Origin: Escherichia coli
GTDB lineage: Bacteria > Pseudomonadota > Gammaproteobacteria > Enterobacterales > Enterobacteriaceae
Strand: one strand, 5' to 3'
Length of the DNA: 64,000 nucleotides
Assembly: GCF_009931435.1 (NCBI RefSeq)
Contig: NZ_CP043414.1
Both the position numbers and the translations under genes were made by a program. This document shows, piece by piece, positions 63,074 to 63,122 of the stretch (positions are counted from its first letter, which is position 1; every line of letters starts with the position of its first letter). The notes below the pieces were generated by a model. It searched no databases. It saw nothing but the letters and a program-made list of their open reading frames with translations, and was not told the DNA's origin.

Positions 63074-63080
63074 TATCTTA

Positions 63081-63108
63081 AGCCCTCTCCCGGTAGGTGA
63101 GGGCTTTT
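63081..63108 (+). terminator. ggt Rho-independent terminator
   Basis: Stem agccctc/gagggct with 11-nt loop followed by tttt, 8 nt after the ggt stop. Confidence 0.7.
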
Positions 63109-63122
63109 AGATTACAAATTCT

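Follow-up and report, generated by a model that had tools for sequence, protein, structure and literature searches.

The genes ggt and yhhY converge near the end of the 64,000-nucleotide stretch of Escherichia coli DNA analyzed here (referred to as the window), separated by a spacer of exactly 49 bp according to the window sequence and the list of ORFs. A sequence-only reading of the window stated that K-12 carries extra genes at this point (yrhB, an IS1 copy, yrhA, and yhhZ) and proposed that, if this is so, the window shows the unoccupied ancestral state of the site and does not come from K-12. The locus raises the question whether the short junction is the original arrangement or whether it was emptied again after an islet had been present. 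We address this question by comparing the spacer and its flanking genes with occupied and empty counterparts in complete E. coli genomes and in related species.

The adjacency itself is a plain fact of the sequence, to which a chance test does not apply. The TAA stop codon of ggt occupies positions 63071–63073 on the plus strand, and the TAG stop codon of the convergent yhhY is read from 63125 to 63123 on the minus strand; the coordinates of the proposed junction were exact. The features of the locus are collected in Table 1. The Ggt protein of the window matches its counterparts in K-12 and other Escherichia at 97.8–98.5% identity and that of RMDEC465 at 100%. The YhhY protein is likewise 100% identical to YhhY of RMDEC465, and it is 82% identical to YhhY of K-12.

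Table 1. Features at and around the ggt/yhhY junction of the window
Feature	Position	Strand	Basis
ggt, gamma-glutamyltransferase, 581 codons + TAA	61328..63073 (ATG 61328)	+	ORF list; protein identity
49-bp spacer, very probably an unoccupied insertion site between convergent ggt and yhhY	63074..63122		sequence
GC-rich hairpin, presumed bidirectional intrinsic terminator for ggt and yhhY	63080..63106; extended helix 63075–63112		RNA folds
yhhY, GNAT N-acetyltransferase, 162 codons + TAG	63123..63611 (ATG 63611)	-	ORF; Pfam Acetyltransf_1, E 1.9e-16
Divergent "class II" tract inside yhhY, ~400 bp	63140..63550 (codons ~21–157)	-	nucleotide identity, dS
RyhB small RNA, conserved neighbor on the other side of yhhY	63762..63826	+	Rfam RF00057, 83.1 bits, E 6.7e-16
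yhhX 5' end, cut by the window end	63947..64000	+	ATGGTCATCAACTGCGCC... = MVINCAFIGFGK, matches the K-12 YhhX N terminus

Anatomy of the spacer

Most of the spacer is taken up by a GC-rich hairpin, AAGCCCTC.CC-loop-GG.GAGGGCTT, which accounts for 27 of the 49 bp, or for 38 when the outer helix is included. The predicted RNA fold is stable on both strands, with −18.8 kcal/mol (z −2.9; 2 of 200 shuffles equally stable) on the ggt strand and −18.5 kcal/mol (z −3.3; 1 of 200 shuffles equally stable) on the yhhY strand. Both genes are therefore followed, just 3' of their stop codons, by a stable GC-rich stem-loop of the kind expected of an intrinsic terminator. The stem is followed by TTTTAG on the ggt strand and by TTAAGATATT on the yhhY strand, that is, by four and two T, respectively. 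A simple, strict terminator scan of the window, which has a threshold of 5 T in 8 bases, did not call the spacer hairpin because only four T lie 3' of the stem; the same scan reported a terminator-like site at 63801–63819, within RyhB. The description of the spacer as "mostly the ggt terminator" is hence fair as anatomy, although the T-run is short and the strict scan made no call. The hairpin most likely ends transcription from both sides, and it may reasonably be regarded as a terminator.

The K-12 islet, its alternatives, and its edges

In the annotated record of K-12 MG1655, the region between yhhY and ggt (b3441–b3447) contains yhhZ, yrhA split by IS1E (insA6/insB6), yrhD, and yrhB, which agrees with the gene content given in that reading except that yrhD had been omitted. 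The two stop codons are 3,454 bp apart (2,676 bp in strains that lack the IS), and ggt is thus not immediately beside yhhY in K-12. The GC content of the islet is 33.6%, compared with 52–55% for the flanking ggt and yhhY. A Pfam search of the islet proteins showed that YhhZ matches T6SS_HCP (E 1.2e-11), with an additional weak C-terminal HNH match, and that YrhB matches Imm35 (E 1.2e-22); no Pfam family was matched by YrhA or YrhD.

These matches fit with published work. A classification of His-Me finger nucleases puts YhhZ among the Hcp-family type VI secretion (Hcp-HNH) effectors, in group 32 (PMC5714182). Hcp-ET1 (Ma et al. 2017), in the summary provided by a review (PMC6730261), combines Hcp with a predicted HNH-DNase domain and was found experimentally to be an antibacterial toxin delivered by type VI secretion. 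According to the same review, K-12 is without type VI secretion genes (PMC6730261). The cluster yhhZ-yrhAB has already been listed, for the O104:H4 outbreak strain, as a horizontally acquired genomic island, "Gist34" (PMC3309015). Taken together, the domains, the literature, the low GC content, and the Gist34 listing identify the K-12 content as foreign DNA, an orphan type VI secretion toxin/immunity islet into which IS1E inserted later. The role of YrhA as an immunity protein is presumed from the position of its gene.

One near-identical copy of part of this islet was found outside Escherichia records. A 4-kb contig (CABHOW010000200.1) of a metagenome-assembled genome labeled Flavihumibacter encodes YhhY, the N-terminal part of YrhA, and YrhD, each 100% identical to its K-12 counterpart, and YhhZ, which is 99.7% identical to that of K-12; it has no IS1E. 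Almost certainly, this contig is contaminating E. coli DNA in that assembly.

The states of the site were surveyed in 5,426 complete E. coli genomes. The states are BLAST coverage classes, not a curated pan-genome, and the frequencies are approximate; the classes overlap slightly (988 + 4,504 exceeds 5,426). The empty-type spacer occurs in 984–988 of these genomes (18%), whereas the K-12-type islet, as judged by yhhZ-yrhA, occurs in 3,829 (70.6%), and yrhB lies beside ggt in 4,048. In 1,236 genomes, ggt and yhhY are within approximately 1 kb of each other, and subtracting the empty-type spacers from these close junctions gives an estimate of about 250 genomes with yrhB alone (4.6%, or roughly 5%). 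A further group of about 8% has only the hairpin typical of occupied sites (see later), together with other content, such as the insert of O157:H7. Overall, about 80% of E. coli carry foreign DNA at ggt/yhhY.

The O157:H7 insert (locus L044, 9475–11329) is 1,855 bp long and AT-rich (31.8% GC), and it contains a DUF4225 gene. Beside the hairpin, this insert also has a stretch that resembles the decayed 5' part of a yrhB-like gene (ATAATTATGATTATATATTACGG...).

The edges of the foreign DNA are flush with both stop codons: in K-12, islet DNA fills the interval from the base following the yhhY stop up to the stop of ggt. Five occupied loci were compared (K-12, one O2:H6 strain, O157:H7, and two strains with yrhB only); in each, the sequence differs from that of empty sites from the first base past the ggt stop, GGTTAGCGGCCCTCTTCGTGGGAAGAGGGCC. 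The hairpin that follows ggt in these loci, GGCCCTCTTCGTGGGAAGAGGGCC, is present in 5 of 5 occupied loci (L001, at 7045–7081, and L044, L045, L046, and L048) and in 0 of 10 empty loci. Since occupied loci depart from the empty sequence at the first base after the ggt stop, the foreign DNA has replaced the whole spacer, stop to stop. Terminal repeats and repeated bases were looked for at the edges of the K-12 islet, and none were found; the edges thus bear neither the duplication nor the terminal repeats that mark a transposon or an IS. The check for target-site duplications that the sequence-only reading had suggested was run on this islet and gave a single duplication, the 9 bp GACATTAAA flanking IS1E inside yrhA.

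In most E. coli, AT-rich foreign DNA has taken the place of the spacer, from stop codon to stop codon. In K-12, this DNA is the 2.7-kb islet comprising yhhZ (Hcp-HNH), yrhA (presumed immunity), yrhD, and yrhB (Imm35 family), with IS1E entering yrhA after the arrival of the islet. The flush edges at the stop codons, the lack of repeats or a duplication, and the existence of several alternative contents at one site point to entry and spread through homologous recombination within ggt and yhhY on either side as the most likely route, as opposed to transposition or site-specific integration. With no target-site duplication at its edges, the site would illustrate how cassettes are exchanged through flanking homology.

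The lineage of the window and its divergent yhhY tract

Over the part of the window compared with K-12 (approximately 5.9–64 kb), identity ranges from 88 to 98% and is mostly 95–97%. The window is certainly not K-12, as had been proposed. For the liv region (window positions 50000–56000), only four of the 5,426 complete genomes are more than 98% identical (N96, MFDS1022581, MFDS1019527, and RMDEC465, at 98.3–98.7%), and the rest do not exceed 96.0%. All four have the empty site. Eight public contigs that encode the YhhY of the window or a near-identical variant are 98.0–98.3% identical to the window over the 3.7–6.4 kb compared, and all eight have the identical 49-bp gap. The window therefore comes from a rare, divergent E. 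coli-like lineage, all examined members of which are empty. From the level of divergence, we suspect that this lineage is possibly cryptic clade I.

One contig of this group, JAHUVS010000006, is labeled E. fergusonii and shares 98% identity with the window along 6.4 kb; the label is probably wrong. Elsewhere, the comparison with K-12 showed three further differences. Window positions of approximately 21650–24630 have no or only a partial K-12 match and correspond to the C-terminal end of rhsB and the region just downstream, the usual variable Rhs tip. Tiles with no or a partial K-12 match also occur at approximately 38800–39450, near tusA/zntA, and ftsY (44001–45000) is 90% identical to its K-12 counterpart and differs in length.

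Within yhhY, a tract of some 400 bp, here referred to as class II, is only 77–79% identical at the nucleotide level to the alleles of K-12, O157, E. albertii, and E. whittamii, whereas its flanks are 90–100% identical. Divergence is normal in the first 60 nt of yhhY, ryhB, the spacer, and ggt. For comparison, YhhY of E. albertii is 97.5% identical to that of K-12, versus 82% for YhhY of the window. Over codons 21–157, the window and K-12 differ with dS = 1.08 (dN/dS 0.135), compared with 0.33 (dN/dS 0.029) for K-12 and E. albertii and 1.6 (dN/dS 0.072) for K-12 and Citrobacter sedlakii; for ggt, the window and K-12 give dS = 0.28 (dN/dS 0.030). The class II tract is under purifying selection.

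The class II tract is rare: only 161 of the 5,426 genomes (approximately 3%) contain a sequence at least 90% identical to it, and 5,067 contain one that is 60–80% identical. In a search of 5.8 billion proteins, the allele class appeared only under E. coli or Escherichia labels, and other genera reached at most 78%. A donor was sought among GTDB species representatives and in the same 5.8 billion proteins, with no match above 83% outside the allele class. E. fergusonii was considered as a donor and rejected because the contig so labeled, being 98% identical to the window, belongs to the lineage of the window. Every class II example examined sits at an empty site, and a composite megablast search agrees in its ranking, which is informative, unlike its counts, as the search also aligned the 80%-identical common allele. 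The class II tract thus appears to be tightly linked to the empty site.

A broader interpretation, which we consider possible and rather doubtful, is that the ggt-yhhY junction acts as a recombination hot spot at which toxin/immunity cassettes are swapped through crossovers within the genes on either side, and that the class II tract is a footprint of this process, derived from an unsampled lineage beyond E. albertii; or else the tract could be an old polymorphism kept by selection on YhhY. A search of the literature on the function of YhhY, and on the ggt/yhhY site as an island, yielded nothing usable. The divergent yhhY allele is the sole element of the locus that might repay more work.

The empty junction compared with outgroups and known systems

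One genome per GTDB species was scanned for relatives of YhhY, and the resulting 40 loci were searched for neighboring proteins. The order yhhX-yhhY-ggt-yhhA was found in E. albertii, E. whittamii, Escherichia sp. E1V33, and two divergent "E. coli" representatives, as well as in about 30 species of Citrobacter, Enterobacter, Klebsiella, Lelliottia, Pluralibacter, Huaxiibacter, and others. Leaving aside the K-12-like contig labeled Flavihumibacter, the gap between yhhY and ggt is 34–122 bp in 33 of the 36 loci with both genes; wider gaps occur in Franconibacter pulveris (approximately 2.9 kb) and in two further loci (231 and 369 bp). The window, with convergent yhhY and ggt and a short spacer of 49 bp, has the arrangement that these outgroups share.

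The spacer itself is homologous to those of other empty sites. It is 93–97% identical, over the spacer columns, to the empty-site spacers of E. coli E69 and E1V33, and it shares its hairpin arms with these two as well as with 042, 23CRST013, and E. albertii. Except for a deletion of 11 bp, it is also collinear with the 59–62-bp spacers of E69, 042, E1V33, and E. albertii. Hairpins of the window type, including a loop-inverted form in E. albertii, are present in 8 of 10 empty loci; E. whittamii and SCPM-O-B-8794 have other hairpins.

Two small rearrangements were observed within these spacers. In E. albertii (L004, spacer at approximately 6457–6521), the arms are those of the window and the loop region is inverted (CCTACCGGGA versus its reverse complement), which we read as a small in-place inversion within the palindrome. 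The 11 bp GTTGGTCATTT (yhhY strand) are missing in the window, its lineage, and strain Z0117EC0005, giving 49 instead of approximately 60 bp (window positions 63106–63110; compare L047, 2572–2631). As a result of this deletion, the hairpin is followed immediately by TTTT on the ggt strand, which may improve termination.

Remnants of an islet were searched for by tblastn and blastn over the whole 64-kb window, and YhhZ, YrhA, YrhD, YrhB, the DUF4225 protein of O157, InsA and InsB of IS1, and islet DNA were all undetected. The occupied-type hairpin GGCCCTCTTCGTGGGAAGAGGGCC is likewise absent from the window. Accordingly, no Hcp-HNH gene lies beside yhhY, and neither yrhB (Imm35) nor the occupied-type hairpin lies beside ggt. 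Because the spacer has the empty-type hairpin and lacks the occupied-type one, it shows no deletion scar. The outgroup gene order, together with spacers that align base for base with those of other Escherichia, bears out the proposal that the empty state is ancestral. We conclude that positions 63074–63122 very probably represent an unoccupied, ancestral-type ggt/yhhY junction that consists essentially of one GC-rich hairpin, likely ending transcription, and that an islet replaced this spacer elsewhere.

Whether the lineage of the window was always empty is a separate matter, since a lineage that was never occupied and one that regained an empty allele by recombination would look alike in the sequence. 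An islet-bearing ancestor could have lost its islet by homologous recombination with an empty ggt-yhhY segment that came from a different strain or species. The mosaic yhhY leaves room for such a secondarily acquired empty allele, as recombination has acted right beside the site: the tract of approximately 400 bp has the dS of 1.08 relative to the common allele, with ggt and ryhB being normal. In addition, empty and occupied states are both found across E. coli, and strain Z0117EC0005 combines the 49-bp spacer of the window with the common yhhY allele, which indicates that haplotypes have been shuffled. However, the site is empty in the four close complete relatives and in each of the eight contigs that encode this YhhY or the near-identical variant; the spacer is ancestral in type and scarless, and nothing in the data requires a prior occupied state. 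We therefore consider secondary emptying improbable, and even in that case the present-day sequence would be an ancestral-type allele. From these observations, we infer that the lineage of the window was never occupied.

Precise deletion, by which an islet once present would have been excised to leave ggt beside yhhY, is far less plausible still. Small islets can be lost by deletion, and the genomes with yrhB only (approximately 5%) could be partial deletions. Yet in occupied loci the whole spacer, hairpin included, has been replaced by a different sequence, and the islet is not flanked by repeats able to mediate excision. Excision could not restore 49 bp that match outgroup spacers at 93–97%, and precise excision was rejected because it cannot rebuild an outgroup-like spacer. 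An assembly artifact, in which the islet was collapsed or lost during assembly, had no point in its favor and was excluded, with only a negligible chance remaining, since hundreds of independent genomes share the junction (approximately 986 complete genomes and many independent contigs with the identical 49-bp gap) and the site is without an IS or repeat that could collapse.

The difference between an empty site and an islet at ggt/yhhY is an ordinary and already known presence/absence difference between strains. It carries little weight beyond correct annotation, showing that the window is not K-12 and adding one more small variable site in E. coli. For K-12, it documents that yhhZ, yrhA, yrhD, and yrhB make up a dispensable, horizontally acquired toxin/immunity islet that is present in approximately 70% of complete genomes and missing from the ancestral arrangement. 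The four states of the site (empty, yrhB only, full islet, and O157-type insert) provide a compact marker for strain typing.

Compared with known systems, the window resembles K-12 MG1655 in having yhhX, ryhB, yhhY ... ggt, yhhA, and ugpQ in the same order and orientation. It differs in that MG1655 has 3,454 bp (yhhZ, yrhA::IS1E, yrhD, and yrhB) between yhhY and ggt and another hairpin after ggt, and the yhhY genes are 80% identical. The closest likeness at the junction is to 042 (NC_017626), E1V33, and E. albertii, in which ggt adjoins yhhY across a homologous spacer with the same hairpin arms; their spacers are 59–62 bp long and contain 11 bp that the window and its lineage lack, and the loop in E. 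albertii is inverted. E. coli 042 also has the class II yhhY tract, with 95.9% identity.

The K-12-type cassette, in turn, resembles orphan modules of the Hcp-ET1 type in combining an Hcp domain with an HNH nuclease at the C terminus and in being followed by small genes presumed to confer immunity; the likeness of YhhZ to Hcp-ET1 is one of domain content, and the window has no such module. Gist34 of O104:H4 is the same gene cluster as the K-12 islet. The paper that lists it assigns to it a function in the conversion of methionine to cysteine, which the Hcp, HNH, and Imm35 domains do not support (PMC3309015). The function given there for yhhZ-yrhAB was borrowed from the unrelated yrhA/yrhB of B. 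subtilis and reflects a collision of gene names.
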